A DNA stretch of 63,159 bases, counting the filler, from Reclinomonas americana ATCC 50394 (lineage: Eukaryota): the NCBI GenBank assembly GCA_048213135.1. It is 15 parts of 12 records of this genome, joined end to end, with 100 filler letters (N's around TTAATTAATTAA, not from the genome) between each part and the next. Parts side by side here need not be neighbours in the genome. Positions count along the whole stretch, not along the records: positions 8,752 to 19,754 come from PS015944.1; 14 more parts are not named here. One strand, given 5' to 3'. The notes below the pieces were generated by a model. It was not told the DNA's origin and did no database searches. It worked only from the letters and a program-made list of their open reading frames with translations. The position numbers were made by a program, and so were the translations under genes. Each line of letters starts with the position of its first letter. Within the stretch, counting starts at the first letter, position 1. Shown piece by piece: positions 9,803 to 46,600 of this stretch.

Positions 9803-12800
9803 TCATCTTCGTCGCCCCCGCCCCCCCTCGTCAGCGACTACAGCACCAAGCGCGTTGGTGAAATCAGGAAAGACGGTGCCAAGAACACGTTCCACAAGCC
9901 CGCGAGTGTTTCGACGCATCAGCTGGATCGCCCTGCCGGACACACGGGCGGTGTACGCAGAACCGAACGCCATGCAGCGAAGACAAATCACACGATCCGC
10001 CGCGGGATTCACGAGGTCCGCCTGTTCATCAAGAGACACTTCCTCCCCATCCGCCAGAGACCACACCCGTACATCTCCGTGACCACTGCCACTCACGATG
10101 TGCTGACCATCGGAAGTTACGGCGACATACCACACCTCAGCAGAGTGTCCCTCCAGTCGTAGCAGTTCCTCTCCGCTCGTCAGTGACCACACTCGTACTG
10201 ACTTGTCCCGACTTCCACATACGATGTGCTGACCATTGGGAGTGACGGCGAGGGACAGCACCCAGCCAGTGTGTCCATCCAGTCGGCGCACCTCCTCGCC
10301 GCTAGCCAGTGACCACACTCGCACTGTCTTGTCTACACTCCCGCTAACGATGTGCTGACCATCAGGAGTGACGGCGACAGACTGCACCATTCTAGTGTGT
10401 CCCTCCAGTCGGTGCACCGCCTCGCCGCTAGCCAGTGACCACACTCGCACCGTCCCGACCCCATCTCCGCTCACAGTGTGCTGACCATCAACAGTGACGA
10501 CAACACACATCACCACACTCGTGTGTCCTTCCAGCCGCCGCAATTCTTCTCCACTCGCCAACGACCACACTCGCACAGTCTTGTCATTGCCTCCGCTGAC
10601 AATGTGCTGACCATTGGGGGTGACGGCAACACACGTTACACGATCATGGTGCCCTTCAAATCGTCGCAATTCTTCTCCACGAACCATAGACCACACCATA
10701 ATAGACCCGTCCCGACTCCCACTCACAGCGATCTGACCATCTGCAGAAACAGTAAATGCGGAGGACTGTCTTGCCACCTTCCACAGTTCCTCGCCTGTTG
10801 ACACAGACCATATTCTCACCGTGCCGTCACTACCGGCACTCACAGCATGCTGACAATCGTGGGTGAGAACAACTGAATGCACCGATCCGGTGTGTCCACC
10901 CAACCGTCGTACTCCTTCATCACCTATCACAGGCCACACTCGTATTGTCATATCTTCACTCCCACTCACGATATACTGACCATCAGGAGTAATCTTGATT
11001 GAACGCAATTGACCAGTGTGTCCCTCCAACCGTCGCACCTCTTCGCCACTCGCCAGTGACCAAACTCGCGCAGTCGAGTCCCCACTCCCGCTCACGACGT
11101 GCTGCCCATCAGGAGTGACGGCGACAGTGTATGCAGCGGCAGTGTGCCCCTCGAACTGTCGCACTTCATCTCCATTCACCAGCGACCACACTCGTACAGT
11201 CTTGTCTTCACTCCCACTAACAACAAGCTGGCCATCTGGAGTGACGGCGACAGAATGCACACTGTCGGTGTGTCCTTCCAGTCGGCGCACCTCCTCGCCA
11301 CTCGCTAGCGACCACGCCCGTATAGTCTCGTCCGAACTGCCACTCACAATGTGCTGGCCATCGGGTGTCACTACCACTGCAGACACCCCACTTGTGTGGC
11401 CTTCCAGTCGGCGCACCTCCTCGCCACTTGCCAGCGACCACACCCGCACGGTCTTGTCCCAACTGCCACTCACAATGTACTGACCATCGGGTGTCACTGC
11501 CACTGCAGTCACCGCACTCGTGTGTCCCACCAATCGCCGCACCTCCTCGCCACTTGCCACCGACCACACTCGCACTGTCCTGTCCCAACTGCCACTCATA
11601 ATGTGCTGGCCATCGGGTGTCACTGCCACTGCCCGCACCCCATCCGTGTGGCCTTCCAGTCGGCGCGCTTTCTCGCCACTTGCCACCGACCACACTCGTA
11701 CAGTCCCGTCCCCACTCCCACTCACAATGTGCTGGCCATCGGGAGTAACGGCAACAGAGTTCACCCAATCAGTGTGCCCCACCATCGGCTTCCTCGGCCA
11801 TTTCACCCCCGTCACATCCGCTCCTCTGAAATCCGCCTCCCTCGCATACGCCATACACAGATTCACCCCTCGCAAATCCGCTCCCTTCCAAACTGTCCTG
11901 TGCATCACCGCATCCCTCAAATCTGCACCCCTCACTCGCACACCCGACAAATCTCGCCCACTGAACGACACTTGTGCCACGCACAACACCGTCGCTGCAT
12001 TCGCTGCTGCCGTCACAACTCGCTCCTCATCCACCTCCCGTGAAAACTCAATCACCTCCCACAGTCTCGCTTGCAATCGAGGAGATCGTCGCACCACCTC
12101 GGCCACCTGCTCAATCAATGATGGTCTGTCGTTCAGAAGTCGCACTCCTAACACATGCTGCTGCACGTCTTGCATTGTCAACCTCCTCTCCTCATCCCAC
12201 GTCTCCCACGCAAACACATGTCGTGCCACACAGTGTTCCAACAACGACAGATGCACGAATCCCCACTGCGTCGTCCCATACCGTCGCACAATCGGACAGC
12301 ACACTCGCACATGCTGATTCTTGTGACCAAGGAACTTGTCAAATGGTCCCTCATCCACTCGTCGCAACGGAAGCGGCGCACCACCAAAGTCATCCTCCAC
12401 GCCACCATCACCTGACCGACTCTCCATAACAGACACACGAACCGCATTTCTCTCATGCATCAATCGTGCCAGTCCCTCACAAAATGAGAGACACGTTTCC
12501 TCACTCGGCACACGCTCTGCACCAACACGAGTCTGCCTTTCCTGCTCCCTCACAATCCACTGACGAATGAATCGGTCAAACACATCACGCCGAATCGGTC
12601 GCTGCACACCACTTGCCACCAACTGCGGCAGCACTCGAGCCACCACTGCCAGCAAGAATGGATTCGACACCAGCGCATCCACTCCATGCACACTCTTCAG
12701 TGCACGCAGGTACTCCTCGGCAGTCGACCATCGCACTTCAGCGTCATCGTCGCCCACTTGCACCAGCCGCTCAAAGTACTCCTCAATCTGCTCCTTGTTG

Positions 12801-14574
12801 AACGGAGCAATGTGTCGCTCCATCAACTGATGCATGCACAACTGTCCTCGTGCATCCACCGGTGCAAAGTACCGTCGATACTGCGTCGCGCCACCCAGTG
12901 CCGTCAGTGCGTAATCGCCTCGACAGGTGATAATCACCTTCACATCGCGACACACATCCAGCTGGCTCTTGACAAACAGATTGACACCACGATACAACTC
13001 GTCGTACCCGTCAAGCAACAACAGCAGTGGTTCCTCCTTCAACCGTCGCACATCCGAATCCAATCCCAACTCGGGTGACAGTCGCTCCAGTGCCTCCTCC
13101 AACAGCCGCTCATCGGCATTGCGCAGAGCACCAAGAGGAACACGCACAGGCACTCGTCTGCTCTCCCTCGTCTGCCACTGCCGCCATGCTCGCTCAGCCA
13201 ACACCGACATGGTGGTGGTCTTGCCGGCCCCACTGTTGCCAAACAGCACCAGCACACGGTGGGTGGTACTGGCGTCGGAGAGGAAAGCATCCACCTCGGT
13301 CCACAGATCCGTCATCTTGTCTCTCGACGAGACATCGCGATCACGTGAGCACTGCAGTGGCACATACATCTGCATGTCCTTGTGCACACTCTCATCGTGC
13401 TGGTAGAATGAGAGTTCACGTACAGCCAGTTGATGCAGTCGCTCCTCGAATGTGTCCACAATGTGTCGAGCGTGACGCGCCTCGCTGATACGAGCAGAGA
13501 ATCGAGCACGCTCATCATCGGTCAAATGCAGTCGAGAGAGGATGGCGAGGAAAACACCACAGTCACCAAGGTACTGCTGTACAGTGGCATCCGTCAGCAC
13601 AAGGTCCTTGTGCGCCAACCCCTTTCTCACGTCATTCATCTCCTCCACCGCCTTCCGTTCATCAGTATCGGCAATCAGCAGCAGCTTGCGGCCGTCATCA
13701 CGAACGAAGCCACCGTACAGCATAATGGTGTGCAGAGCCGTCGTGTCAAAACCATCACACGGGGGATCGGACGAGGGATCGGCGTCGAATGTAGCACGCC
13801 AGGCCAACACCACCGGATGCTTCTCGTCAAACAACTTGACTCGAGAGGGGTGGAGTGGAGCATGTCGCTCACGCCATGCCTTCACAGCCACCGCATTCAT
13901 GCCAGCAGGCGTGAAACTCGGCACCCACGCCCGCACATCAAAGGCGGGATGATCGCGACTTAACTGAGCCAGTAAGCGTTGACAGCGCAGACGCACGGCC
14001 TCCTCCACCACCTCAAAGGCCATGTTCATGCGCTGCGAGTTGATCATGCTGTGCACCCAGGGCCGTCAGCATCACAGAAAGAGCAATCAGGGGAGACAAG
14101 GACGAAGGCAAGCAAAACAAACCGAGTCACACGCTCCGAGTTGCTGCGTGAAAACATGACAGTGAGCTGCATGTTTGGCGCAGAGGCATGATTCACAAGC
14201 ACATGCACCTTCCACTCCCACTTGCTCCACTAGACTGCATCGCCACGCCAAGTGTCACACGGACGACGAGATGAGTGGATGAGTTGACTCCGAGCGTCTT
14301 CAACTTCAACACACTCGCGTCTTCCAAGTCGAATGCCATTGGCTTCTCCACTCCCACAATCTCCACTGCCCCATCTCCACTCTTCTCACGCAGCAAGCGT
14401 GTGGCCTCGCGCAGCAAGTCCGCGAGAGTGGACATGCCCGACAAGCCTTCCACCACCACCGACAGCGATGAATCATGCGCCGCACTCACATTCACAGAGA
14501 ACTGTGCACCAAAGAACAGTGAGAACACACTCCGGAGAAGGAGAGAAGCGAGAACAAACAACCCTCACCGACAT
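9803..14574 (-). CDS. NLR-like STAND protein 1: Ubl-like header - HEPN - NACHT - pentapeptide repeat - 14 WD40; exons 14574-14569, 14501-14209, 14143-14123, 14048-9803 (~1521 aa)
   Basis: Walker A GNSGAGKTT, Walker B LLLLLDGYDE, VIITCR and NPFLL motifs; pentapeptides RDLSGVRVRGADLRDA; 14 GH..WS repeats; FDTTALHTIM...VRKGLAH HEPN signature. The exon model is in phase and identical in the paralog. Confidence 0.9.
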
Positions 14575-14692
14575 TGTGCGGCAAAAGTCTCTTCTCGGAC
14601 AATTGCGATTGTCCCTGTTGGTGGTGACGTCACTTTCGTGTGGCAAACCCGCTCGCGCACTTTTTCACTTTTGCAGTTTTTGAGTTGAAGTC
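14575..14692. promoter_or_regulatory. ~120 bp bidirectional promoter between the NLR-like gene and Mnd1, containing a CRE palindrome (TGACGTCA) and a GGACAAT/ATTGTCC inverted repeat
   Basis: Divergent ATGs at 14574(-) and 14693(+). TGACGTCA at 14625-14632. Confidence 0.6.
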
Positions 14693-15142
14693 ATGGCGCG
14701 CAAAGGAGTGTCGGCTGCGGAGAAGAAGAACCGCATGTTGGAGATCTTTTGGGAGAATGTTGCGTGTGTGTGTGAGAGAGAAGAGTGAGAGAGTGTGAGA
14801 CAGGGGAGAAAAGACACAACACACACACACGAGAGAGAGTGAGAGCGAGGGGGAGAGTGTGAGAGAGTGTGAGAGGGAGAGAGAGTGACAGCGCGCGTGG
14901 AGAGAGAGTGAGTGAGAGAGTGTGAGTGAGAGAACACACACCCTTCTCTCTTCTCTCTCTCTCTCCTCGCTCTCTTCTCTCTCCTCTCTTTCACAAGCAC
15001 AACAGCACACAATGAGCACACACTTCTCTCACACAACTCTCACTCTCTGTGTTTCTTTCTTCTCTTTTACACACTCTCTCTCTCTTGTGTGAGTGTTTTT
15101 CTTCTCTCTCACTCTCTCTCTCTCTCGCGTGTGAGTGCTCAT

Positions 15143-15173
<31 letters not shown>

Positions 15174-16442
15174 AAGAATGAGAGAGAGGTCTGTGTCACA
15201 TGAGAGTGGAGATTTTGTGCTTTTTGTGTGTGTGTGTGTGCGAGTGCGAGTGAGAGAGAGAGAGAGAGAGAGAGGAAGAGAGTAAGAGAGAGTCTGTGCG
15301 CTCACTGTGCGTGCTTGTGCGTTGTGTGAGGGAAGATGTGCACTCATTTGCTTTTTTTTTTGAGCAGAAGTGCCCATTCTCTCTCAAGGAACTGGAGAAG
15401 ATTGCGCCTGCGCGCAAGGGCATTGGTGAGTGGCGATGTATGCATTGTGCACGTGAGAGAGTGTCTCTCACTTGTCTCTCATCCCCCTCTCTTTTCATCC
15501 TTGTCTCTCTCTCTCTCTTTCTGTGCGTGTGTGTCTGAGTGTTTCCATTTCCCTCTTCACCTTGTTGCCCGCTTCCGCCGTCTCCTTCCTCCACGATCGC
15601 TCCCTTTGTTTCCTTCCCTTCCACCCATTTTCCCTCACTTACTCTCTCCCTCTCTCTCTCTCCCTCTCTCTCTTCCCCACGATTGCAGTCGCCCAATCGG
15701 TCAAGGACGTGATTGCGGAGCTCGAGGGCGACGACCTCATTCTCAAGGACAAGTTCGGCACCGGCGTCTTCTTCTGGTCGTTCCCCAGTGTGGCGGCCTC
15801 CACTGTGCGTCCCGTCGCTGCCCTTCCCCTGTCCCCCTCTCCACTCACTCGCATTGGCTTCGCGCAGCGCACGGTCAAGCACGAAAAGCTTCTCAAAGGC
15901 ATTGGCGAGAAGACGGAAGAAGTGCGCATGTTACGCAAGCGGCAGGCCGAATTACAGCTGCTCAAGCCAGAGACGGTGAGCATGTGTTGCATTTCTTTCG
16001 CACGTGGTTTCTCCTCTCCCCCTCCTTCTCACTTCTCCCCCTTTCCCCTTTCCCTTTCCCGTTGCCTCACTTCTCCCTCCCCCTTCGCCCTATTCCCAGG
16101 ACGACCGCAAAGTGAAACGCCAAAAGCTGGCCGACCTCCGCGCCACCCAAGACGACCTGAAGACCAAGCTGCAAAAGTACGCCGACTTTGACCCCGACCT
16201 GCTCGATCGTCTCCGTTGCGTGCCAGTTTCTTTACTTCCCTTTGTCCCTCTCGTCTCTCACTCCCCCTCTCTCCCCTTTTCTACAAACAGGTGCCGGTGC
16301 CGCGCAGGCACGCGATGCCGCCAACCGCTGGACCGACAACTACTTTGCCATGCGCGACTACCTGGTGAAGAAGTCCGGCCGCACCAGTGCCGAGCTCGAC
16401 CAGGGCTTTGAGGCGCCGGAGGAGTACGACTATGTCGAGTGA
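14693..16442 (+). CDS. MND1: Meiotic nuclear division protein 1 (Hop2 partner); exons 14693-14758, 15368-15426, 15689-15804, 15868-15975, 16100-16214, 16291-16442 (internal boundaries approximate)
   Basis: MARKGVSAAEKKNRMLEIF, FSLKELEKIAP, QSVKDV...DKFGTGVFFWSFPS, DPDLLD and AANRWTDN are Mnd1 hallmarks. All joins are GT-AG and in frame. Confidence 0.95.
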
Positions 16443-17230
16443 GCGCGAAGAGGGGGAAGGAGGTCGTGTGGCTATCCACGACACAATGAATCGCTGTGCA
16501 TATTTGGGTGATTGAAGAGGAGAGCAGACAGCAACAACAACTTACTAATCCACGCAGCAGCATAGCTGCATGCCGAGTGCTGATCATCATCTGCCAATAA
16601 CAACAATAACAACAACAACACCAGCTTGTACTAAATCCAGCAGCGTAGCTGCACAATGTCCTTCACGCACCAGCAACCATGCTAATGCGGTGAAGATCGC
16701 AGTTCTCGACCTGTTCGAAGCTCCGAGAGCGAACACAAACACAAGAAACCTGCTGCTGCTTCAAGACTGACGTTTGTGTTGATGATCAAGACAGCAGTGG
16801 CTTGTTTGTTGATGAATGAATTGTTGTTGCTGGCTGATATTAAACGCAGAATGCAACGATAGACCCTCTAAATGATCTAAACCAGTGCTTCTGACGCTGC
16901 AAACATACAGCAGCACAGAGAAGAGACATGAGCGTCTTTGCCAGTGGGTCAAACGGCGATGCATGTTGAAGTTTCTGACAAGTTTCAAGAGCGAGTTGTC
17001 GATGATCTCCCCTCCCCTCTGCAACAAGTATCTCGTTCCTTCCTTTCCTTTGCCTTCCCTTCCCTCCCCTCTCCTCCCCTCTCCTCCTCTCTCCTCTCTC
17101 ATTCCTCTCCTCCCCTTCCCTTCCCTCTCCCTTCCCTACCCTCTCCTCCCCTCTCCCTTCCCGTCCCGTCCCTTCCCTCTCCCTTCCCTTTCCCCCATCC
17201 GAGGTTACACAAATAACTCCTTCTTTACTC

Positions 17231-18026
17231 TCACTCCGTGGACAGCGTGTCGGGTGGACACGCACTCGACGACATCACCGCATCGAGGCCGGGCTGGAAC
17301 GAGGCCACGGCCACACACGCTTGCACGCATTTCCGCTCTTTGCACGAGTCCACGCAGTGACGACGCGAGTGCACGGCGCACTGCGCGCGATGTTGCCAGG
17401 CGGCTGCGCGTTGCAAAGAAAATGAGACAAGCATCAGATGGAGACAACTGTGCACGACAGCACCTCGTCCCGGCGTCGTGACACGCCCGTTGCACACAAG
17501 GGCAGTGGAGCAGAATAGGCGACGGCGCCCCGGTATCCTGCATTCTTCTTGGCACGCGGCGGTGACACTGCACAACAGAGGTGAGTAATCGAGAAGAAAA
17601 GGGAAACCTGCACATATGGCACGACGCACCACTTGCGCACATCCGGAGACTGGCACTGCTCGCATCGCGGTCCTCCCCACGGTGCTCGGCAGTTGCAACC
17701 GCCATTCGGCAGCACGTCACCGCGCCCCGAGCTGCGCGACAAACAGAGTGAGCATGAAGCTTCATCAGCACCACTAACGGACGCAGTACCAGTTGTCCAA
17801 CGTCGGCTGACCGCAGTCGTCGCCCGTCCAGCCCGGCACGCAGCAGCACGAGCCGTCGTGGCGGCAGTCGCCGCGACCGGAGCACGACGATTGTGGATCA
17901 CACAGCTTTCCTCCGTTCAACCCCGCGGGCAGCGGCGGCGACGGCAGTGCCTCGGCACAGTGCTCGCCGGTCCAGCCGTCGTCGCACTGGCAGCCGCCGG
18001 TGGAGGAGATGCGGCCGTGGCCAGAG
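17231..18026 (-). CDS. 3' exons of a Cys-rich EGF-like (tenascin-type) repeat protein
   Basis: CSGHG...CQCDDGWTGEHC, CSGRGDC...CCCVPGWTGDDC, CNCRAPWGGPRC. Stop at 17231. Confidence 0.75.
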
Positions 18027-19321
18027 CTGGGGGAGAAGGGTGAGAAGGGTGAGAAAGAGAGAAAGAGTGGGCGAGAGAAGAGTGAGAGAAAGTGTGAGAG
18101 AAAGAGAAGCAATGAGAGAGAAGGAAAGTAAGAGAGAGAGAGAGGAGAAAGAGAGAGGGAGAGAGAGACAGTGTGTGAGAGAGACAAGAGAGAGATTAGG
18201 AAGAGAGAGAGGGGCGGAGAGATAATGAAAAAGAATATACATGCAATGAGAAGCGATGGTGGAACGAACGAAGAGGAGAAAGGGAGGGGAATGAGAATTA
18301 GAATATTGAAGACCTCACCCTCCATCCCATCTCTCCCATGTTGTAATTCGATCGAACTTGGCTCTGTCGCAAACTCTATTTCTTACTCCTCCATCGACCA
18401 ACAGCATGCGCATATCAAACCGCAACCAAACGCTACAACAGACTCAACTGACTCGCTTCCTGCATGTACTTGACGCAGTCCGCTCTTTAGCTTCTTGCCA
18501 CTCCTCTCCCACACACATTCGGACCTCTCTCTCACTCCCTTTCTCTCTTCCTCCTTTTTCCCTCTTTCTCTCCTTCTCTCACTCCTTTTCCCTCTTCCTC
18601 CTTTACCTCTTCTCCCCTTACCCCCTTCCACGTTTCCCTCTCCTCCTTTTCCCTTCTTATTTCCCCTTTTCCTCTCCCCCCAATTCTCTCTTATTCTTTC
18701 CCTCTTGTTTTTTTCGCTCTTCCTCTGCTCCCTCTCTCCCCGTCGCTCTGCTCCATTCACTCTCCTTGCCGACCTTCCCCTTTCCCTCTTGTCCCACTTT
18801 CCCCTCCCCTGTCTTTCTCATCCCCTTCCCCTTTCCACTTCTCCCCTCTTCCCCTTTCCCCACTCTCTCTCTTCCCCCTTTCCCTGATCCTCCTTCCCCT
18901 CTTCCCCTTTTCCTCTCTCTTCCCCCCCTTCCCCTCTTCCCCNNNNNNNNNNNNNNNNNNNNNNNNNNNNNNNNNNNNNNNNNNNNNNNNNNNNNNNNNN
19001 NNNNNNNNNNNNNNNNNNNNNNNNNNNNNNNNNNNNNNNNNNNNNNNNNNNNNNNNNNNNNNNNNNNNNNNNNNNNNNNNNNNNNNNNNNNNNNNNNNNN
19101 NNNNNNNNNNNNNNNNNNNNNNNNNNNNNNNNNNNNNNNNNNNNNNNNNNNNNNNNNNNNNNNNNNNNNNNNNNNNNNNNNNNNNNNNNNNNNNNNNNNN
19201 NNNNNNNNNNNNNNNNNNNNNNNNNNNNNNNNNNNNNNNNNNNNNNNNNNNNNNNNNNNNNNNNNNNNNNNNNNNNNNNNNNNNNNNNNNNNNNNNNNNN
19301 NNNNNNNNNNNNNNNNNNCAG

Positions 19322-19738: not shown

Positions 19739-19913
19739 GTGCGGGGGGTGCGAANNNNNNNNNNNNNNNNNNNNNNNNNNNNNNNNNNNNNNNNNNNNTT
19801 AATTAATTAANNNNNNNNNNNNNNNNNNNNNNNNNNNNNNNNNNNNNNNNNNNNTGCGTTGTGAGGATAACAGCGTGATGTTGCGGTGTGGAGATGGGGG
19901 CGGGAAAACGAAC

Positions 19914-23161: not shown

Positions 23162-23702
23162 CTTTGTGCGACAGTCCTGAGAATGTCGGAGAGCACGCAA
23201 GTCGCACCTTCTCTCTCTCTCTCTCGCACACACACATTCTTTTTGTGTACGACAGTGCTGCAGTTCTCTCTCACCTTCTCTCCCACCAACTCTGCAACCT
23301 ACGCGACGGATAAATCTTCACGTTCATCCTCTCTTCCCCTCACTCACTCTTTNNNNNNNNNNNNNNNNNNNNNNNNNNNNNNNNNNNNNNNNNNNNTTAA
23401 TTAATTAANNNNNNNNNNNNNNNNNNNNNNNNNNNNNNNNNNNNNNNNNNNNACTCACTCAGTCACACACACACACACACACACAAACAACACCTTCCGC
23501 GCCCGACTCACTCGCACTCGCCACACTCAGCAACACTAATAGCCACACTCCACAAACAACAACAACAACACCACAAAAACACCGACTTCTTCTCATTGTG
23601 TGTGTAATGTTGTGAGAGACAAACAGCGCGCAGATATCTGAGTGCGAGCACGATTGTCACCTTACCTCGCTTTTGTTTGGTGGTGTTTGATGATTGCGGC
23701 TT

Positions 23703-24517: not shown

Positions 24518-25301
24518 CGACAACAACTTTACAAATCCAAACAGCAACACAGGTGCATGATGATCACCATCATCATGTTTTGCAACACGAGTTGTCGACG
24601 AGTCCGGATCCGCTTCTCTCCTCCTCTAGATCTTCCGCTCCACCGTAATCGGCACACAGAAGCGGGTGCGCATGCGCCCGCGCACCCAACACTCCGGTGG
24701 TGCATGCACTTGAAAGCGCTGCTTGCTGGCTGCATCACATGCATCAAATGCATGATGCGCTTGTGTCGCGATCGTGAATGCGAATTGATATTGCGCGCAG
24801 CGTGATGCATTGGCTGCGCGAAACAGTCACCGCAACATAGTGCACATGCTCCTCCCACACGCGCGCACTTGCAGTGCTCTGTTTTCCTTCTCACTCGAAA
24901 CCAAATTCGACTGCATAACCCCATATGGCCATTCGTTCTTCACACTAGTTTCCACGCCTCGAGCACCACCTCCACAACGCTCTTCCCGACATGACAACGC
25001 ACACACGCTCGTGCAAAGCACAGCTCGTACTACGCTCAGTCACCGTCTGACTGACCGACTCTTTCTCCACCAACAAACAAGATTCGAACGCAAATGCGCA
25101 AAGGTGATGAAAGGGCACTCCAAAAAGGACAACATGAGAGCGCCACAGTTTCCACAAGCAGTGTTGTACGACACGCATGCAACACCTGTCTCCTCATCTC
25201 CCTCTCTGTGTCGCTACACTCTCTTGTTTCTCTCTTTTCTCTCCCTCACTTGTTCTCACACTCCCGTCTTCTCTGCAGACGCACGCCCTCTATGGGCACT
25301 C

Positions 25302-34458
<9,157 letters not shown>

Positions 34459-34529
34459 GCAAGGAGGAGGAGAAGGCATAGGAGAAGAGGGAGAAGGAGA
34501 AGGGAGAAGAAAAAAGGAAAGGGAGAAGA

Positions 34530-35530
34530 AAGGAAAGAAAAGGGAATGGCGGGTAAACTACACGCGATGTGGTTCTCTTGAAAGAAGAAGGGAAAGAAAG
34601 GGAAGGGAGAAGGGAAAGAATTCGAAGGGAAGGGAGAAGGAGGGCAGAAGGGAAGGGAATGGCGGTTGAAGGAGAAGCGGGACAGGGGGTGGGAGAAGGG
34701 AAAGGAAGGGAGGGAGATGGTGGGTTGAAAGTGAGGAAAGAAGGGGGCAGAAAGGAAAGGCAATGGCGGTTGAAGGAGAAGCGGGACAGGGGGATGGGAG
34801 AAGGGAAAGAATCGAAAGGAGAAGGTGGGCTGCAAGGGAAGGGAACGGCGGTTGAAGGAGAAGCGGGACAGGGGGGTGGGAGAAGGGAAAGGAAGGGAGG
34901 GAGATGGTGGGTTGAAAGTGAAGAAAGAAGGGGGCAGAAAGGAAAGGCAATGGCGGTTGAAGGAGAAGCGGGACAGGGAGATGGGAGAAGGGAAAGAAAG
35001 GGAAGGGAATGGCGGGTACATGTCACGAGCCGTGGGTTTCTCTTGAAAGGAGAAGGGAAGGAAAAGAAAGGGAGAAGGAGGGCAGAATGGAGAAGGGGGA
35101 CAGGAGGGTGGGAGAAGGGAAAGAAAGGAAGGGAGAAGGTGGGCAGAAGGGAAGGGAATGGCGGTTGAAGGAGAAGGGAAGGGAAGTGGGATGGGAGAAG
35201 GGAAAGCAAGGGAGGAAAGAAAGGGATGGGAGAAGGAGGGCAGAAAGGAGCGAGCCATGGATGAAGGAGAAGGGAGGCAGGGGGATGGGAGAAGGGAAAG
35301 AAAGGAAGGGAGAAGGTGGGCAGAAGGGAAGAAAGAAGGGGGTAGAAAGGAAAGGGAATGGCGGTTGAAGGAGAAGCGTGACAGGGGGGTGGGAGAAGGG
35401 AAAGAAAGGGAATGGAATGGCGGGTACATGTCACGAGCCGTGGGTTTCTCTAGACAGGAGGAGGGAAGAGGGATGGGAGAAGGGAAAGAAAGGGAAGAGA
35501 ATGGCGGGTAAAATGTCGCGAGCCGAAGGA
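34530..35530. repeat. Purine-rich minisatellite (core AATGGCGGTTGAAGGAGAAGCGGGACAGGGG)
   Basis: Several imperfect copies downstream of the adhesin stop codon. Confidence 0.85.
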
Positions 35531-36175
35531 GAAGGGGGGAGGAAGATGGGTTGAAGGGCAGAATGACGTTCTGCGTCGCGTGCTTGCGGTATCTCGTTCT
35601 GAAATGCACGTACTTCTGTGGCGTGTGCTCACCCAAGATGGTGATTACTTTGCCGTCTGTACGCTGCACTGCACTGCAGCATCAGTTCAGCAGAGCGAGG
35701 AGAGGAGAGCACGAGGGGAAGAGACAATGCCGGCCGTTTCCCTTCCTCGAGCCAATCTCTTTCTTATCGGATCGTGAAAGTGTGTGGGGAACAAATCGGA
35801 AGAGTGGCCTCCACAGAATTCTTTGTCACGAGGCCGCACTTGTAAGAGGAAACACTCGAAGAGGACAGCATGCATGTGCGCACTGGTTCGTTGTTGATAC
35901 CAAGGTGAGGTTGTGAGCGTTGATCCTCGACGATGGATCACGCGGCATCGATATCAGGCGCTCGATCGAGTCGTCTCACCTGTCGACCGCGACTGATCAT
36001 GATCAACGCCATGTCGCAGTCCCTGGCCGATGGCATAGGCCTCTGTCGCTTGCAAGCTGCAACACTCCTTGCCCATCAAGTCCGCTTTCATGACAAAACC
36101 TGTCACGTTGTCCGGACAGCATCGATTTGCAACTCGACACACGCACTCCTTCTCTCTTTCTTTCTCCCTTTCACC

Positions 36176-38404
36176 ATGGAGCTCCTCGGCAAGTTCCAGT
36201 GCTGGCGCGACGCCTACTGCGTCTCCCGCGACGGCACCCTCATCGCCTTCCTCTCACACAGCGACGACGACGCGCACGATCAAACCGACATGGACGACGA
36301 GGACGAGCGCACAGTGAACGTCACGCTGCTCGACGGCCGCACCACCGAGCGCGTCGACCACTTCCCTGTCCTGCGCGACTACGCCGTCGACGATGTCCGC
36401 GCCATGTGTGTCACACGCGACTATGTGGCCACGGTTGTGTGCGACGAGTACGGAGTCGCCTATGTGTGGGTCACAGAGACCGCGGAGAGCACGCGATCGG
36501 GCGCGTTGCCAGTGGGCGGTCGCCACTATGACTACATTACAACAAACAGCAGCACGCGTACGGGCGTGGACAGCAAGAAAGCGCGCGGAGGAATTCGTCA
36601 CTTGTCTCCTTCTGTGGACGGGGATATGCTGGTGTTTGCCAGTGACGAGCAGGTGTGGACTGTGCTGCCGTATCGTGACACGCCCGTGGATGAGTACACG
36701 TGGGTGCTTCGGCCTATTGCAGGTGCAGCGGCGAGTCGTATTGAGCAGCTGTGCGTCAGTGACTCGCACATTGTGCTGTGCGACACGCAGTTTCGCGTGT
36801 TGGTGTTGCCGGTGTTGGCGGCACGGCATCGGCAGCCGGAGCAGCGTGCGCAGGCGGAGTGTATTGCTGTGAGTGGCAATGGAACGACTGTGGTGTGTCT
36901 GTTGCGGAGCACGGTGTGTGTCTACGATGGGGCGTGCAGTCGGCGCCTGCGTGAGTTTGACACGGGCGGCTACTCGGTCTTCCGGTTCGGTCTCAATCGA
37001 GTGGCGCTGTCGGGCGACGGGCGGCTGTTGATGTATGTGGCCGAGGGGAAGCGGTTGGTGATGACGAGCACGGTAGAGGAGGAGGAGGGAGGGGCGCCGA
37101 CGGTGGTTGAGACACCGTTTGGAGAGGCGTATTGGAATGACGAGAGTGGTGTGTGCTGGGTGGCCGCGTACGGGTGCGGCATGCTCGGTCGTGGCAGTGC
37201 CGGTGGTAGCGGAGCCATGGACAGTAGCATGGAGGTGGTTCGATGGCTCGGCTCCTCCTGCATCTCGCTGGACGACCATGACCCCACCGCCTACACGGTC
37301 ACTTTTGCAGTGATCTCTGGGTGTCGTACGCGCATGGCGGTGGCGTTGGATGTGCGTTCGTCTCCGGATCGACCGCGCTACTCGAGCACTGTCCACACTC
37401 GTTGCCTGTACTCGGGCAGGCTGCTGCGGGAGCTTGCGCTGCCGGCGGACGACATGGAGGTGCGTGCGTTGGCCTCTGGCGAGACCACGCACAGTCCGCT
37501 CTACGTCGCCACCCGCACGTGCGTACTCGGCTACTCGTGGACGACTGGCGACCGCCTCACCACGATTTGGGTGGGCGGAGTGTCCGCCATGTGGCCGTCG
37601 CCTGCCGACGGTCTCGTGCTGACCACGCTCTCCTTTGACGGCACGCTGATGCGCAACGGTGTGCAACTGGCGGGTCGCCTGCCGCGCGACACACGAATGG
37701 CGGTGCTGGTTCGCGAGGCGGATCGCGAGTACGTGGTGGGGCTTGCCGACCAGCCGCGGCAGCAGCTGGTGTCGGTGGAGGTGGGCGGCGATCGCGTGCG
37801 GCGATTCGATCTGAACGACTACTCCCGCCGCTTCGTGCTGCAGGCCGCGCGCGACATCGACGGACTGGTGCACGCGGCGTGCGACGTACACGACTCGTAC
37901 ACTCTGCGAGCCGACGATCTGACAGTCGTGCGCGACTTGCGCAACCAGCTGAGTGGGCTGCGGGTGACCAAGTTCGTGGGCCAGCACCTGGCTCTCGGGT
38001 TGCACGGTAATTATGACTCGCTCGTTCTCCAGCATCACCGCTACCGTGAGGTGTGCCGGCATTGGCGCCTGGTGCACATCGGTGACCGCTTCTTCATACC
38101 GAAGCAGCTCAACGGCCGACTGTGCTTCGATTGGCGCAGCGACGGTGCCGCGGTGGTGCTCGTCAACAATTGCCGGCTCTACGTCGCGCGGGTGAATGTG
38201 GCCGCGCGGGAGGTCGACGAGGTGGAGGCGGCGATTTCGTTTGTGAGGATGTTGTGCAAGGAAAGGGGGAAGGAGGTGGAGGATAAGGAGGAGGAGGAGG
38301 AGGATGGGGAGCCGCTGCCGTTGCAGGTGTTGAGGTGTTTTGTGGCGGAGGAGGCGAGGGTGTTGGCGTGGAGGGTGTTGAGGGGGGTGGTGTTGATCAA
38401 ATAA
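36176..38404 (+). CDS. Intronless ~742-aa protein with divergent WD40/YVTN-like beta-propeller blades
   Basis: Long GC3-rich ORF from ACCATGG at 36176. Blade-like segments CVSRDGTLIAF, CIAVSGNGTTVV...VCVYD, VALSGDGRLLMY, FDWRSDGAAVVL. Confidence 0.65.
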   Translation: MELLGKFQCWRDAYCVSRDGTLIAFLSHSDDDAHDQTDMDDEDERTVNVTLLDGRTTERVDHFPVLRDYAVDDVRAMCVTRDYVATVVCDEYGVAYVWVTETAESTRSGALPVGGRHYDYITTNSSTRTGVDSKKARGGIRHLSPSVDGDMLVFASDEQVWTVLPYRDTPVDEYTWVLRPIAGAAASRIEQLCVSDSHIVLCDTQFRVLVLPVLAARHRQPEQRAQAECIAVSGNGTTVVCLLRSTVCVYDGACSRRLREFDTGGYSVFRFGLNRVALSGDGRLLMYVAEGKRLVMTSTVEEEEGGAPTVVETPFGEAYWNDESGVCWVAAYGCGMLGRGSAGGSGAMDSSMEVVRWLGSSCISLDDHDPTAYTVTFAVISGCRTRMAVALDVRSSPDRPRYSSTVHTRCLYSGRLLRELALPADDMEVRALASGETTHSPLYVATRTCVLGYSWTTGDRLTTIWVGGVSAMWPSPADGLVLTTLSFDGTLMRNGVQLAGRLPRDTRMAVLVREADREYVVGLADQPRQQLVSVEVGGDRVRRFDLNDYSRRFVLQAARDIDGLVHAACDVHDSYTLRADDLTVVRDLRNQLSGLRVTKFVGQHLALGLHGNYDSLVLQHHRYREVCRHWRLVHIGDRFFIPKQLNGRLCFDWRSDGAAVVLVNNCRLYVARVNVAAREVDEVEAAISFVRMLCKERGKEVEDKEEEEEDGEPLPLQVLRCFVAEEARVLAWRVLRGVVLIK

Positions 38405-39350: not shown

Positions 39351-40089
39351 GAGCTGAATAGAAGCGAAGAGATGAAAGAAAGAAGAAAGAGAAGAGAGAA
39401 ATGAGTTGTTAGTATCCGTGTTTCCCCCTTCGTTCCAACAATTGTTGGAGAGGGTGGAAAGTGAGAGAAGAAACGATCTGTTCACAGTCTCCTTCGTCTT
39501 GTTGTCTTCTTCCAACAAACTATGAAGAAGGAGGAGAGGAATCACTTTCTTCTTGCTTCCCAGCTTTTCAACAAAAGAGGAGGAGGCAGAGTCGAATCCT
39601 TCTCATCTCTTCGTGTTCTGACTGAGAAGGTGAAGATGGCTAACGCCTAGAAATACCAAGACACCCCTTTTCCTCCTCTCTAATCTTGCTGAAGAAAGAC
39701 GAGAAAGGAAGATGAGGAGGTGGGTCGCAAGCCATCTGTCCTTTCTCTTCACACACTTTGGACGAAGAGTAATCAACGGCTTCTCTCTCCTGTCAGAAGA
39801 AAGGCGACCAGATAAAGAGAGTGAGAGTGAGGAGAGAACAGAATGCCGTGTTTCCCATTTTCTCTCCTGTTTCTCCTGTCTTCTCTTCTCTTCTCCTCTC
39901 TTCTCTCTTTCCCCTCTTCCCCCACCAAAGCCAAGCAAAAACCAATCCTCCCCACCGCTACCTCCCTTTGCTTCCCTTCACTACGAAGNNNNNNNNNNNN
40001 NNNNNNNNNNNNNNNNNNNNNNNNNNNNNNNNTTAATTAATTAANNNNNNNNNNNNNNNNNNNNNNNNNNNNNNNNNNNNNNNNNNNNC

Positions 40090-42148: not shown

Positions 42149-42776
42149 CACNNNNNNNNNNNNNNNNNNNNNNNNNNNNNNNNNNNNNNNNNNNNTTAAT
42201 TAATTAANNNNNNNNNNNNNNNNNNNNNNNNNNNNNNNNNNNNNNNNNNNNAGAGAGAGAGAGAGAGAGAGAGAGACTCTTGTCTTGTGCATCTCATCGC
42301 ATACACGATCAAAGTGATATTCACTCGCAAGCACGTACATTCACATGAGAGAGAGAGAAAGAGCGAGAGAGAAAGAGACTCCTGTGGAGCTCGGTTTACA
42401 CCCGATCAGAGTAATAGGCACGCGAACACTCACCAAGAGAGAAATATGAGAGAGACAACAGCGGAGCACGACGGATGTAAACTCCGCGAAGCAAGGCATT
42501 TGAGAGAGAGAGAGAGAGCGTAACAAGCTCCTGCTGCCACTCTTGTCATCACTCTCACCTTTCCGCGGAACTGCACTGCTGTTGTCTTCGTTTCTCTCGC
42601 GAGTTTCCTCTTGCCCTTCCTTGTCACTCTCCGCGAGAGAGAGAGAGAGTCCACAGCATACCGACTCGCAATCAAGCACACAAGTCTTGAAGACCTCTCC
42701 CTCCCACCCCCTTCCCGTTTCCCTCCCCCCCCCCCCTCACTCTGCCTTCCCCTCACCCTCCCTTCCCCCTTTCCAG

Positions 42777-43441
42777 GGCCACTGCATCCTGGAAATGCCC
42801 TCGGGCACCGGCAAAACCATCAGCCTCCTCTCCCTCATCACCTCGTACATGGCGGTGCACCCGGAGCGCGGCAAGTTGGTGTACTGCACGCGCACGGTGC
42901 CGGAGATGGAAAAGTGCCTGGAGGAGATGAAGCGCCTGCTGGCGTACCGCACCGAGGAGATGCGCAAGGAGGGCAGGCAGGCGGCGCCGTTCTTGGCGGT
43001 GGGTCTGTCGGCGCGCAAGAATCTGTGCATCCACCCCGAGGTCAGTGCCGAGGGCGACGGGCAGCTGGTGGACTCCAAGTGCCGCTCGATGACGGCGTCG
43101 TGGGTGCGCGAGCGGGTGGGAGCGGTGCAGAGGGTGGTGCGTCCCGGCGGTGCGGATGGAGAGGAGGATGTGGAGATGGCGCCCATGGCGGTGGATGATA
43201 TTGAGGATGGGCATCAGGGGTTGCGGTTGTGCAATTACTATGAGGAGTTTGAGAGGACGGGGAAGGAGGCGATATTGCCGCAAGGTGAGGAAGGGAAAGG
43301 GTGGGGGGAGGGGAAAGGGTGGAGGAGAGGGAAGAAGGGGGGAGGGAGAGGAGGGAAAGAGGGAGAGGGGCGGGCGACAGCTTTTGGTGTTGTCAGTTGC
43401 CGTCACTGCATACTGTGAGCGGTGGTGTTTCTCTCTTTCCT

Positions 43442-43472
<31 letters not shown>

Positions 43473-43626
43473 NNNNNNNNNNNNNNNNNNNNNNNNNNNN
43501 NNNNNNNNNNNNNNNNNNNNNNNNNNNNNNNNNNNNNNNNNNNNNNNNNNNNNNNNNNNNNNNNNNNNNNNNNNNNNNNNNNNNNNNNNNNNNNNNNNNN
43601 NNNNNNNNNNNNNNNNNNNNNNNTTC

Positions 43627-43668
<42 letters not shown>

Positions 43669-46600
43669 ATATCCTTTCTCGCCTTCTTTCTTTCTTTCCC
43701 TCTCTCGCTGTCTGTGCATATTTTTGCCTGTCTGTCAGTGTCTGTGCCTCTTTCTCTCTAACTCGTACGCGATCTCTCTCGATCTTTTCTTTCTCTCTTG
43801 CTGTATGTGTCTGTCTGTCTGTCTGTGTGTTTGCGTCTATGCCTCACTTTCTCGTCTCGCACGCGGTCTTTCTCGATCCTGGCTTTCTCTCTCTGCTGTC
43901 GGTCTGTTCGTGTGTATTTTAGTCTGTACCTCGCTCTCTCTCTCCTTTCTTTCTCTCTTGCTGTATGTGTCTATCTGTCTGTCTGCGTGTGTTTGCGTCT
44001 GTGCCTCTCTTTCTCTCTCAAAAGGTCTCGTACGTGATCTTTCTCAATCCTGGCTTTCTCTCTCTGCTGTCTGTCTGTTTGTCTGTCTGTGTGTGTCCCT
44101 CGCTCTCTCTCAAACTCCTTTCTCTCTCTCTCTGTATTTGTCTGCCTGTTTGTATGTGTATGTGCCTCGCTATCTCTCAAACTCGCACGCATTCTTTCTC
44201 GATCTTCCTTTGTCTCTAAACCCCTGTTTATGTCAGTGTGCCTGTTTGCCTGCGTGTTTGCCTGTCTGCCTTTCACTCTCTCTCACTCTCATTGCCACCC
44301 CTCATCCACCTTTTCTCCCATTCCCTTCCCCTTTTTGTGCAGGGGTGTACACCCTCGCCGAAATCCGCGAATTCGGCCGCGGCCACGGCTGGTGCCCGTA
44401 CTTCCTCGCCCGCCACATGATCCAAGTGGCCAATGTGGTGGTCTACAACTACGCCTACCTGCTGGACCCGAAGATCTCCGGCCTCGTCTCACACGAGTTG
44501 CCGCGCGACACGATTGTGGTGTTTGACGAGGCGCACAATATCGACAATGTGTGCATCGAGTCGCTGAGTGTCAATGTTGATCACTCGGTGCTGCGCTCCA
44601 GTGTGGCCTGTTTGACGCGGTTGGATCGGAAGATTCGAGAGTTGCGATCTGATTGGCTAGGGTGCAGCTCGGTGCTTCCGCCCTCTTTCTCTCACTCTCC
44701 CTCCCTTTCCCTCCCTTGCAGGATGCGCGAGCGGGACGCCGATCGCCTCAACCGCGAGTACAGACGGCTGGTCGAGGGACTGGCGTCGGCGGGTGTGAAT
44801 CGAGCGGATCGGCTAATGGCGAATCCCGTGCTGCCGGATGACATTCTGCAGCAGGCGGTGCCCGGCAACATTCGCAAGGCGGATCACTTTGTCAGTTTTA
44901 TGCGGCGATTTGTGGAATATGTCAAGGTGCGCAAGGGAGGGGAAAGGGGGGGGGGCGAGAAGAGGGAGAGGGAGAAAGAGAGAAAGAGAGGAAAAGGGTT
45001 CGAGGGTCTGGGGAAAAATGATAGGGGAGAGAGAGAGACGCGGATTGAGAGAATTATACACGAGGTAACAGCTTTGCGGATGAATATGTTTCTTCTTCTT
45101 TCCCTTTTTGCTCCCCCCTTTGCTCTCCCCCCTTCGCTCTTCCCCTTTCGCTCTCCCCCCTTTACTCTTCCCCTTTCGCTCTCCCCCTTTCGCTGTCCCC
45201 CCTTCGCTCTTCCCCCTTCGCTCTTCCCCCTTCGCTCTTCCCCCTTCNNNNNNNNNNNNNNNNNNNNNNNNNNNNNNNNNNNNNNNNNNNNTTAATTAAT
45301 TAANNNNNNNNNNNNNNNNNNNNNNNNNNNNNNNNNNNNNNNNNNNNCAGTCTCAGCGGCAGGTTCCAGTTGCTCCCCCCTGCTGTACCGTACAGTCCGC
45401 CTTGGCCGTCAGCATAACGGGGGTGGGAGACGCCTGGCTTTGTCTAACCTTTTCATCTTGACTTTGTCCTTTTTCTCTGGTTATGCGTCCTTTGTTGTCT
45501 GCATGTGACGTGGAGCTGGGCACAGACACTCGTCTGTCCTCTGCTTCTTGGTGTTTTTATTTACTCTGGTTCTGCGTTCAATTTGTCTGCATGTGACGTG
45601 GAGCTGGGCACAGACACTCGTCTGTCCTCTGCTTCTTGAGTACTTCATTTTCTCTGATTCTGTGTCCTCTGTTGTCTACGTGTGACGTTCTGGCTTATGT
45701 TTTCTTTCTCGCATTCGACCCCATCTCTCTTGTTCCGTTCCCCTTCACCGTTTATCCCGCTTCTCTCTCCCTCTCTTTCTCCCTCTGTGCTTGTGTGTCT
45801 GTGTGATTGTATGTGAGTGTATGTGTGTGTATGTGTGTGCGCGCGTGTGTGTGCGTGCGCGCATGTATGTATTTGTATGTAATCCTCCTGTCTCTCGTCC
45901 TTTTCCTTCTCACATATTTTCGTCGTCAGTGTGAGGAAGAGAAGGCGGATGTTGCACGAGGAAGGTGCCAACAGAGTGTGGAAAGAACACTTTTTCTCTT
46001 CTCCATCTTCTCTCCCGTTCATTCAACTCTCCCACTCTTCTCCTTCTCATTCGCTCTCTCTTCCTCCTGTCTCGTATTCCACCTGCACGGCATCCCCGTG
46101 ACCTCGCACGCTCTCATTCTTCTCTACCCCCCTTTCTCCTTCCACTTCTTTCTACCCCTACTTTACACGTCGCCCTTCATTTGCTGCCTCCCTGTCCTGG
46201 CCCCCTCTTTTCCATCTGTCCTTCCCCTTCCCCTCCTCTAACCACTTGATTGTTTGCAGATGGATCCGAATGAACCTGCACATCAAGGAAAAGGACTTTC
46301 TCGCATTCGACGCGCTGCGGCAGGCCTCGCAGTGCATCGGGCGCGTCATTCGAAACAAGACGGATTATGGACTGATGATTCTCGTCGATAGCGTGCGTCT
46401 GACGTCCGCTCTCCTTCTGTCGCCTCCCTGCCTCACCTTTTTATCATCTGTCGCAGAGATACAGCCACCACGACAAGCGCAGCAAGTTGCCGGCGTGGAT
46501 TGCGCAGTATTTGTCGGATCAGTATGTGAATTTGTCGGTGGAGCTGGCCATGTCGGTGGCAAGGGAGTTTTTGCGGGATATGTCGCAGCCGTGGGATCAG

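Follow-up and report, generated by a model that had tools for sequence, protein, structure and literature searches.

Two NLR-like receptor genes of Reclinomonas americana with an orphan helical head, a candidate Swt1-like HEPN domain

Introduction

HEPN domains placed ahead of a NACHT module have been described from both animals and bacteria. In cnidarians, amphioxus, and oyster, the HEPN domains of DZIP3 and CXorf38 occur in fusions with NACHT, Death domains, and LRR, and bacterial HEPN-STAND fusions have been described as well (Anantharaman et al. 2013, PMC3710099; cited, like the other sources below, for the parts consulted). More than 50 NACHT proteins of the pearl oyster carry an N-terminal DZIP3-like HEPN domain, with tails that can be TPR or WD40 (PMC9646362), and HEPN also figures among the effectors of bacterial NACHT proteins, in which pentapeptide repeats and beta-propellers are among the sensors (Kibby et al., preprint 10.1101/2022.07.19.500537). 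In the literature consulted on these animal and bacterial members, no test of ribonuclease (RNase) activity of a HEPN-armed NACHT protein is reported. Here, we describe two paralogous genes on the minus strand of a stretch of DNA from the protist Reclinomonas americana ATCC 50394 (assembly GCA_048213135.1); this whole stretch of 63,159 nucleotides, filler included, is referred to as the window, and all positions count along it. Both genes encode intact NLR-like STAND receptors of the NACHT-pentapeptide-WD40 type. They share a lineage-specific N-terminal helical domain of ~215 residues, the head, which is, judged from its sequence, most likely a very divergent Swt1-like HEPN domain.

The animal proteins (with DZIP3/hRUL138-like HEPN in pearl oyster and Nematostella, and CXorf38-type HEPN in amphioxus and cnidarians) resemble this reading of the protist genes in having a HEPN domain (with the motif Rx4H) at the N-terminus, a central NACHT, and C-terminal LRR, TPR, or WD40, as well as in their lineage-specific duplication and predicted RNase-L-like defense role (PMC9646362, PMC3710099). 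However, the animal heads match the Pfam family PF18738, and the Arg of their motif is usually followed by Asn, whereas the protist head has Lys, is closest to Swt1-like domains in our tests, and has no Pfam match. The protist NACHT is moreover of the pentapeptide-WD40 type, possibly with a ubiquitin-like (Ubl) exon ahead of the head, and the host is not an animal. The bacterial HEPN-STAND and NACHT proteins likewise have HEPN N-terminal to the NTPase, and beta-propeller and pentapeptide sensors (PMC3710099; 10.1101/2022.07.19.500537), but they are prokaryotic and intronless, and the head has no relative among 1.84 billion representative proteins. The preliminary description of this locus regarded a Ubl-HEPN head on such a receptor as unfamiliar. 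As to the N-terminal HEPN on a NACHT protein, this is now seen to be published for animals and bacteria; the combination Ubl-HEPN-NACHT, and any protist HEPN-NLR, was not found in a literature search conducted largely at title level, with the supplements of PMC3710099 and PMC9646362 outside its scope. We regard the design as a variant of a published kind, at most a very divergent protist variant.

Organization of the two genes

The preliminary description placed two intact paralogs at 9803-14574 and 47710-52663, and both were recovered there as minus-strand open frames. The main open frame of paralog 1 spans 9803..14056 (1417 aa) and that of paralog 2 spans 47710..52338. Over 1451 aligned columns the two products are 81.9% identical, rising to 90% in the first 257 residues, and a third copy or fragment of the gene was not found elsewhere in the window. 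The loci lie on separate contigs (8752-18942 and 45348-53783), and the distance between the genes and their order are therefore uncertain. Homology between the loci begins five bases upstream of the ATG (14574 and 52663) and stops ~290 bases past the stop codon. The possibility that the two copies are haplotype variants was considered and rejected, since the flanks are non-homologous outside these limits.

At the nucleotide level the paralogs share 91.9% identity in the head (residues 1-215) and 88.8% in the NACHT region. The ratio of nonsynonymous to synonymous substitution (Ka/Ks) between them is highest in the WD region (0.44) and amounts to 0.15 in the NACHT and 0.02 in the pentapeptide repeats. 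In the head it is 0.34, and 0.24 in the head core (residues 95-175); the head is under purifying selection. After the last WD40 repeat both proteins continue in a C-terminal tail of ~70 aa (…ADRVICLRCMAFGSAYTARVSG…; 9806-10015 and 47713-47960, minus strand), with 83% identity and a Ka/Ks of 0.22; the tail has no assigned family.

The NACHT-pentapeptide-WD40 chassis and its relatives

The NLR-like layout given in the preliminary description is borne out by Pfam, with all three families exceeding their curated cut-offs. In paralog 1, the NACHT NTPase lies at 12767..13258 (PF05729, E 4.7e-9, 36.7 bits against a cut-off of 26.7), the pentapeptide repeats at 11804..11947 (PF00805, E 1.5e-8, 34.5 bits against a cut-off of 20.2), and 14 WD40 repeats of 42 aa each at 10016..11788 (PF00400), all on the minus strand. 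The PF00400 stretches number 14 in paralog 1 (E 8.4e-144) and 15 in paralog 2 (E 4.4e-151). A helical region separates the NACHT from the pentapeptide repeats, and the WD40 repeats follow these. The Walker A motif GNSGAGKT at 13217-13240 (residue 273) fits GxxGxGK[ST], and, as read from the sequence, the Walker-B-like LLLLLDGYDE is intact and fits hhhhDGxDE.

A search with residues 230-700 returned 49 NACHT relatives (E 1.4e-33 to 3.8e-5; 23-31% identity over 471 aa). These are mostly NACHT-pentapeptide-WD40 proteins of Mortierellomycota, together with metagenome proteins and one protein from Nitrospirae. They are the closest NACHT proteins to the two genes and share with them the pentapeptide and WD40 tail and a pre-NACHT linker (P0002-P0050), but none of them carries the head domain. 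Upstream of the P-loop the match is confined to residues ~217-257, the linker, and the N-terminal heads of the relatives are instead TIR, metallophosphoesterase, Arm-like repeats, or TPR, for example TIR_2 in P0003 (E 7.8e-11) and PF00149 in P0011 and P0021. Since the relatives share the linker yet bear other heads, residues 1-215 fill what looks like a swappable effector slot, and the domain content of these proteins shows what we read as an exchange of heads on a common chassis, in fungi as well as in bacteria. TIR heads are found in P0003 and P0004, and the Nitrospirae relative (L001, P0011) has a metallophosphoesterase head.

The regular 42-aa WD units (n=22) have a mean pairwise identity of 64%, and their variation is focused at positions 15, 16, 18, 34, and 36, with 8-13 residue types at each. 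Strongly similar WD40 repeats with few variable positions are likewise known from fungal NACHT-WD40 NLRs of the HET-E/HET-D type, which differ in that their heads are HET and similar domains (PMC4986451). The fungal NLR repeats are defined by more than 85% mutual identity and have hypervariable sites (Dyrka et al. 2014, PMC4986451); at 64% the protist units stay below the 85% of that survey, though their variability is similarly focused. Two surveys of fungal NLRs, PMC4986451 being one, are silent on HEPN and RNase in their main text. Since no defense genes were recognized among the scanned neighbors in the window, one may ask whether the proteins are housekeeping STAND scaffolds and not receptors for defense or cell death, the Ubl exon perhaps belonging to another transcript. 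We consider this very improbable: the gene duplication, the five-position WD variation, and the WD Ka/Ks of 0.44 match the fungal NLR sensors (Dyrka et al. 2014, PMC4986451, as far as consulted), and the nearest relatives bear TIR and other effector heads.

The head domain in database searches

The head of paralog 1 (residues 1-215 from MINSQ, 13403..14047, minus strand) is a helical, HEPN-like candidate domain with no relatives in ordinary searches. A phmmer search of 1,835,955,588 representative proteins gave no match, and among 2608 candidates from a word-index search restricted to proteins of 779-2480 aa none reached E<=0.001. No match was obtained among the PDB sequences, either with a single head or with alignment A1 as query. 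Pattern searches matched the head 596 times in metagenome contigs and 33 times in viral contigs, and none of these matches was confirmed. The only PADLOC match, Hp2 at E 0.048 in paralog 2, was taken as noise.

In the ESM Atlas, which we use as a source of leads, the neighbors of the head include a HEPN_Swt1 cluster (0.80) and a HEPN_DZIP3 cluster (0.76). The ten best named neighbors all belong to the HEPN_Swt1 family or clan, and one third of shuffled proteins show the same. An fD..L helix ahead of the motif, which we had taken to be a mark of the DZIP3 clade, led the preliminary description to place the head in the DZIP3/CXorf38-like clade. This placement is not supported: there is no match to PF18738 in Pfam at E<=10, and the tests described below, for which Swt1-like comparators were used, place the head nearest to the Swt1-like domains, and these comparators, too, have a D..ALL helix.

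Comparison of the head with HEPN_Swt1

To compare the head with HEPN_Swt1, PF18731 domains were collected from bacterial genomes of three phyla, giving 74 loci (L023-L096). Matches to PF18731 were present in 45 of 401 genomes of the phylum of Acaryochloris, in 36 of 301 of that of Planctomycetaceae, and in 13 of 401 of the phylum of the gammaproteobacterial genome; the family is thus frequent in the first two phyla and rarer in the third. A profile hidden Markov model (HMM) was built from 68 of the 74 loci, the other six (L088 and L092-L096) having been missed by a first cyanobacterial HMM at E<=1e-3, and an alignment (A2) was made of the two heads and the 48 comparators that remained after 20 of the 68 had been dropped at 70% identity. 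In the three comparators that were scanned, PF18731 lies at the N-terminus and is fused to DUF499, SNF2, or RNase III-dsRBD.

Against the 68-domain HMM the heads reach 8.2 bits (E 9e-5) and 8.4 bits (E 8e-5, both for a single target), with ERKAVEEMNDVRKGLAHKDLVLTDAT aligned to the catalytic helix of HEPN_Swt1. For each paralog, the score is attained by 2 of 3000 shuffles. When the window was cut into six-frame tiles of equal length (n=1298), four tiles of the heads ranked 1-4 with 8.8-9.7 bits, and the next tile scored 5.2. The helix-3-like block DERKAVEEMNDVRKGLAH lies at 13610..13663 on the minus strand and includes the Rx4H motif, with R141 at 13625-13627 and H146 at 13610-13612; in paralog 2 the motif is RKALAH (51676..51693, minus strand). 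These are the positions named in the preliminary description (R141-H146 at 13627-13610, and R140-H145 of paralog 2 at 51693-51676), and the strings FDTTALHTIM and VEEMNDVRK(G/A)LAHKDLVLTD are present in the sequences as quoted there. A bare Rx4H is found at chance level: each head has two, and when the heads were shuffled 5000 times, the motif turned up in 3512 cases for one and 3483 for the other. The 18-residue motif block (ER..V.E....R...AH) scores 17.7-17.8 bits against a profile of the corresponding HEPN_Swt1 block, and the 17.8 bits of paralog 1 are equaled by none of 5000 shuffles.

Profile-profile comparison by hhalign gave a local score of 21.1-21.3 over 52 columns, attained by none of 251 column shuffles, and paired DTTALHTIM with the D..ALL..M helix of HEPN_Swt1. 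In the MAFFT alignment with the 48 comparators (A2), R141 and H146 are the sole invariant columns. Of the 14 columns conserved to at least 90%, seven are identical in the head (D101, R131, E136, R141, A145, H146, and R172). HEPN domains keep an acidic residue in helix 2, close to the motif; D101 aligns with the family Asp, itself at least 90% conserved, in both MAFFT and hhalign, the helix-2 block as such scoring at shuffle level. The head has in common with the bacterial HEPN_Swt1 proteins its N-terminal position, the helix ER..V.E....R...AH, and, as aligned, the upstream Asp. It differs from them in that the Asn and Trp of their RNxWAH are replaced by Lys and Leu, in an extra insert of ~40 aa, and in its partner domains.

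Several observations weigh against assigning the head to HEPN. No curated HEPN family is matched in Pfam (a noise match only, at E<=10), PADLOC, or NCBIfam, and the curated cut-off of PF18731, 27.5 bits, is not reached, our own 68-member model giving 8.2-9.7 bits. When entire open frames of the window were scored, the genes came only second and fourth of 876, at 4.3 bits (E 0.59) and 3.8 bits (E 0.82). Nearly all of the profile signal comes from the single 18-residue helix block; neither the helix-2 nor the helix-4 block stands out from shuffles, and a collinear chain from which the motif block has been removed is equaled by 499 and 334 of 5000 shuffles. The hhalign probability is 2-4%, with P values of 0.011-0.022. 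The A2 profile, in which the two heads are included, scores ribosomal protein S6, a protein of unrelated fold, at 14.4 bits on a similar local pattern, and it misses yeast Swt1 in the PDB. Both paralogs have Lys after the Arg of the motif, where the 48 comparators have Asn (46), Asp (1), or His (1), and two further family residues are substituted in the head (W144 by Leu and L106 by His). The residue after the HEPN Arg is described as polar and mostly N, D, or H (PMC3710099); Lys is polar yet stands outside the usual three. Finally, conservation of the Arg and His between the paralogs says little because it is drawn from two sequences that are 90% alike, and the P values of the targeted tests are optimistic because the head had been picked beforehand for its motif.

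These observations bear on two other explanations of the head. According to the first, the head has no relation to HEPN and is a helical domain specific to this lineage, such as an uncharacterized NACHT N-terminal helical or adaptor domain. It would signal by contact between proteins or by attacking membranes, and its ER..R...AH helix would resemble HEPN by chance. The lack of any database relative or curated family match, the confinement of the profile signal to one helix, and the higher score of ribosomal S6 against a profile that contains both heads all fit this explanation, as does the listing, for bacterial NACHT proteins, of N-terminal helical domains whose function is unknown (Kibby et al., preprint 10.1101/2022.07.19.500537, in the part consulted). 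Chance resemblance does not readily account for the HEPN_Swt1 profile placing the head first among the 1298 window tiles, nor for the identity at 7 of the 14 most conserved columns; the shared HEPN_Swt1 family or clan of the ten best named ESM neighbors, also seen with a third of shuffled proteins, points in the same direction. We consider an unrelated domain possible but on the unlikely side.

The second explanation accepts the HEPN fold and holds that it is catalytically dead, serving as an RNA-binding or oligomerization module that recruits another effector. Lys in place of the Asn of 46 of the 48 comparators and Leu in place of W144 would agree with a loss of activity, and inactive HEPN versions exist, eukaryotic Swt1 included (Anantharaman et al. 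2013, PMC3710099, part consulted). Against this, R141, H146, D101, R131, and E136 are retained in both paralogs, the Lys still falls in the polar class given for the position after the Arg (PMC3710099), and the head core has a Ka/Ks of 0.24. An inactive HEPN head appears improbable to us.

Predicted structure of the head

The head is all-helical in both AlphaFold runs; the HEPN fold is an up-down bundle of four helices. In HEPN domains the Rx4H motif is located where a helix ends and a loop begins (Anantharaman et al. 2013, PMC3710099), and in the models R141-H146 spans a helix end and loop start in the same way, the helix ending at residue 145 in both runs. This modeled position of the motif argues against a domain unrelated to HEPN. 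With the HEPN family alignment as input, the model reached a predicted local distance difference test score (pLDDT) of 75.6 and a predicted template modeling score (pTM) of 0.71. Among the top 50 chains of a VIA-align search, 11 belong to the HEPN superfamily (Z 4.7-6.6), including Cas13 (6.6), the C-domain of yeast Swt1 (6.4), Csm6 (6.4), the HEPN domain of sacsin (6.1), and 1wwp (6.1).

Other structural results count on the opposite side. The model with pLDDT 75.6 is circular because the alignment behind it is that of the HEPN family, and it is to be read as a test of compatibility only; with the two paralogs alone the pLDDT was 35.5. Foldseek with the family-alignment model returned nothing at E<=0.001. 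Acyl-CoA dehydrogenases, She2p, and designed bundles reach the same VIA-align Z as the HEPN chains, and Z values below ~13 are stated to be common for helical bundles. In favoring no family, the fold searches (Foldseek with nothing, VIA-align with HEPN level with bundles) agree with the explanation of the head as an unrelated helical domain. Prediction of a head homodimer, run without the family alignment, scored 0.00 against a mark of 0.32 and speaks neither for nor against dimerization.

Taken together, the HEPN head proposed in the preliminary description stands in part. It is backed by a targeted Swt1 profile match at the catalytic helix, while a curated HEPN match is lacking, the signal is that of one helix, and the fold evidence is circular. 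We somewhat favor a HEPN fold for the head. That the head is also an active RNase seems to us rather less likely than not.

Proposed exon-intron structure and the Ubl-like exon

Comparison of the paralogs suggests a three-exon model for both genes. In paralog 1, exon 1 would consist of ATG TCG (14569..14574), which is followed by GT and is 100% identical in both paralogs. It would be separated by a GT..AG intron of 67 nt (14502..14568; 55% identity between the paralogs, with indels) from exon 2 (14209..14501), an open Ubl-like segment of 97 codons and 293 bases with 82.6% nucleotide identity and no indels. The proposed intron 2 (GTGCAT..CACAG, 160 nt, 14049..14208) shows 71.9% identity, again with indels, and exon 3 (9803..14048) is an unbroken open frame of 1414 codons and a stop. 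Paralog 2 has the same layout on the minus strand at 47710..52663, with exon 1 at 52658-52663, an intron at 52589-52657, exon 2 at 52296-52588, a second intron at 52112-52295, and exon 3, with its 15 WD40 repeats, at 47710-52111.

The sequences at the splice sites are kept in both copies (ATGTCG|GT, the AG acceptors, donor GGAAG|GT, and acceptor CACAG|C). As the 160 nt of intron 2 in paralog 1 are not a multiple of 3, the frames are joined only by splicing. The presence of indels in the introns (55% and 72% identity) and their absence from exon 2 (82.6%) support the three-exon model, with its two introns and Ubl exon, which we infer from conservation between the paralogs only. Spliced as proposed, the products would be ~1514 aa for paralog 1 and ~1566 aa for paralog 2. 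We also considered that exon 2 might be translated following trans-splicing at its acceptor, and rejected this because the first downstream ATGs are out of frame. The exon 2 segment has no match in Pfam or NCBIfam, and its named ESM Atlas neighbors, again to be taken as leads, are all ubiquitin or Rad60-SLD clusters (0.87-0.88). A short Ubl-like exon may thus precede the head, its Ubl fold being putative.

Proposed mechanism and related systems

STAND receptors provide the analogy for a mechanism, and HEPN RNases act as dimers. We would propose that a ligand binds to the variable face of the WD40 propellers and that the NACHT modules then oligomerize. The oligomerized NACHT would bring the heads together, and their HEPN domains would pair to form an RNase site with R141 and H146, and with D101 nearby. 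RNA would be cut by the paired heads, and the outcome could be growth arrest, cell death, or the destruction of invader RNA. The HEPN fold, the catalysis, the activation by oligomerization, and the role in defense are all inferred. As a whole, NLR-like receptors with a divergent Swt1-like HEPN head and an RNase switched by oligomerization constitute the best explanation we can offer, and we regard it as evenly poised between right and wrong. The more specific form, in which a single-chain NLR of a free-living protist, outside both animals and fungi, combines the Ubl with an active, extremely divergent Swt1-like HEPN RNase switched on by NACHT oligomerization, is in our opinion doubtful.

RNase L consists of an ankyrin sensor, a pseudokinase, and a KEN/HEPN RNase. 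The KEN domain is treated in PMC3710099. If the above reading of the protist genes is right, they would be analogous to RNase L in that ligand-driven self-association within one type of polypeptide activates a HEPN RNase, but the sensor and switch modules are different, there is no 2-5A system, and homology does not extend outside HEPN. Sacsin likewise has Ubl and HEPN within one protein (PMC3710099, Table 1), but as far as the parts consulted describe it, one lies at either end of what is a giant protein resembling chaperones, and there is no NACHT.

Were the head a working HEPN RNase, a protist lineage would join the bivalves, cnidarians, amphioxus, and bacteria for which the HEPN-NLR design is known, and the two genes would offer a compact system for asking whether NACHT oligomerization activates a HEPN RNase. 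If the more specific form were right, the arming of NLRs with HEPN would be both pan-eukaryotic and bacterial and not peculiar to marine invertebrates, and the Ubl-HEPN head would be a new effector module unseen by the current family libraries. Should the head not be HEPN, we are left with two further NACHT-pentapeptide-WD40 receptors that have an orphan helical head. NLR-like proteins can have effector heads that have diverged beyond the reach of Pfam, and surveys of protist immune repertoires therefore undercount them.

Surroundings of the genes in the window

The window contains fourteen identical joints (N44-TTAATTAATTAA-N44) with stops in all six frames, located at 3235-3334, 6775-6874, 8652-8751, 19755-19854, 23353-23452, 27558-27657, 39989-40088, 42152-42251, 45248-45347, 53784-53883, 55976-56075, 57452-57551, 59194-59293, and 60503-60602. 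Most of them lie at (CT)n or (CA)n microsatellites. Contigs have thus been strung together in the window, and neither the order of genes nor any distance that spans a joint is reliable.

Scanning of the window against Rfam yielded nothing. Long open frames without a Pfam family at E<=0.001 are present on the plus strand at 1466-2533, 15336-16115, 25177-25995, 27681-29099, 35933-38404, and 54727-55710, and on the minus strand at 7500-8450 and 34197-35669; some of these may be chance frames in GC-rich, repeat-rich DNA. An open frame of 957 aa at 29593-32466 (plus strand) contains PhoD_N and purple-acid-phosphatase N-terminal type domains, repeated. At 43301-45295 (plus strand), an exon of an XPD/Rad3 helicase (DEAD_2, HBB) was identified, which places the host among the eukaryotes but near none of the sampled lineages. 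Over 36% of the query, its identity is at best 60%, to the jakobid Seculamonas, and for many algae and plants it is 50-56%.

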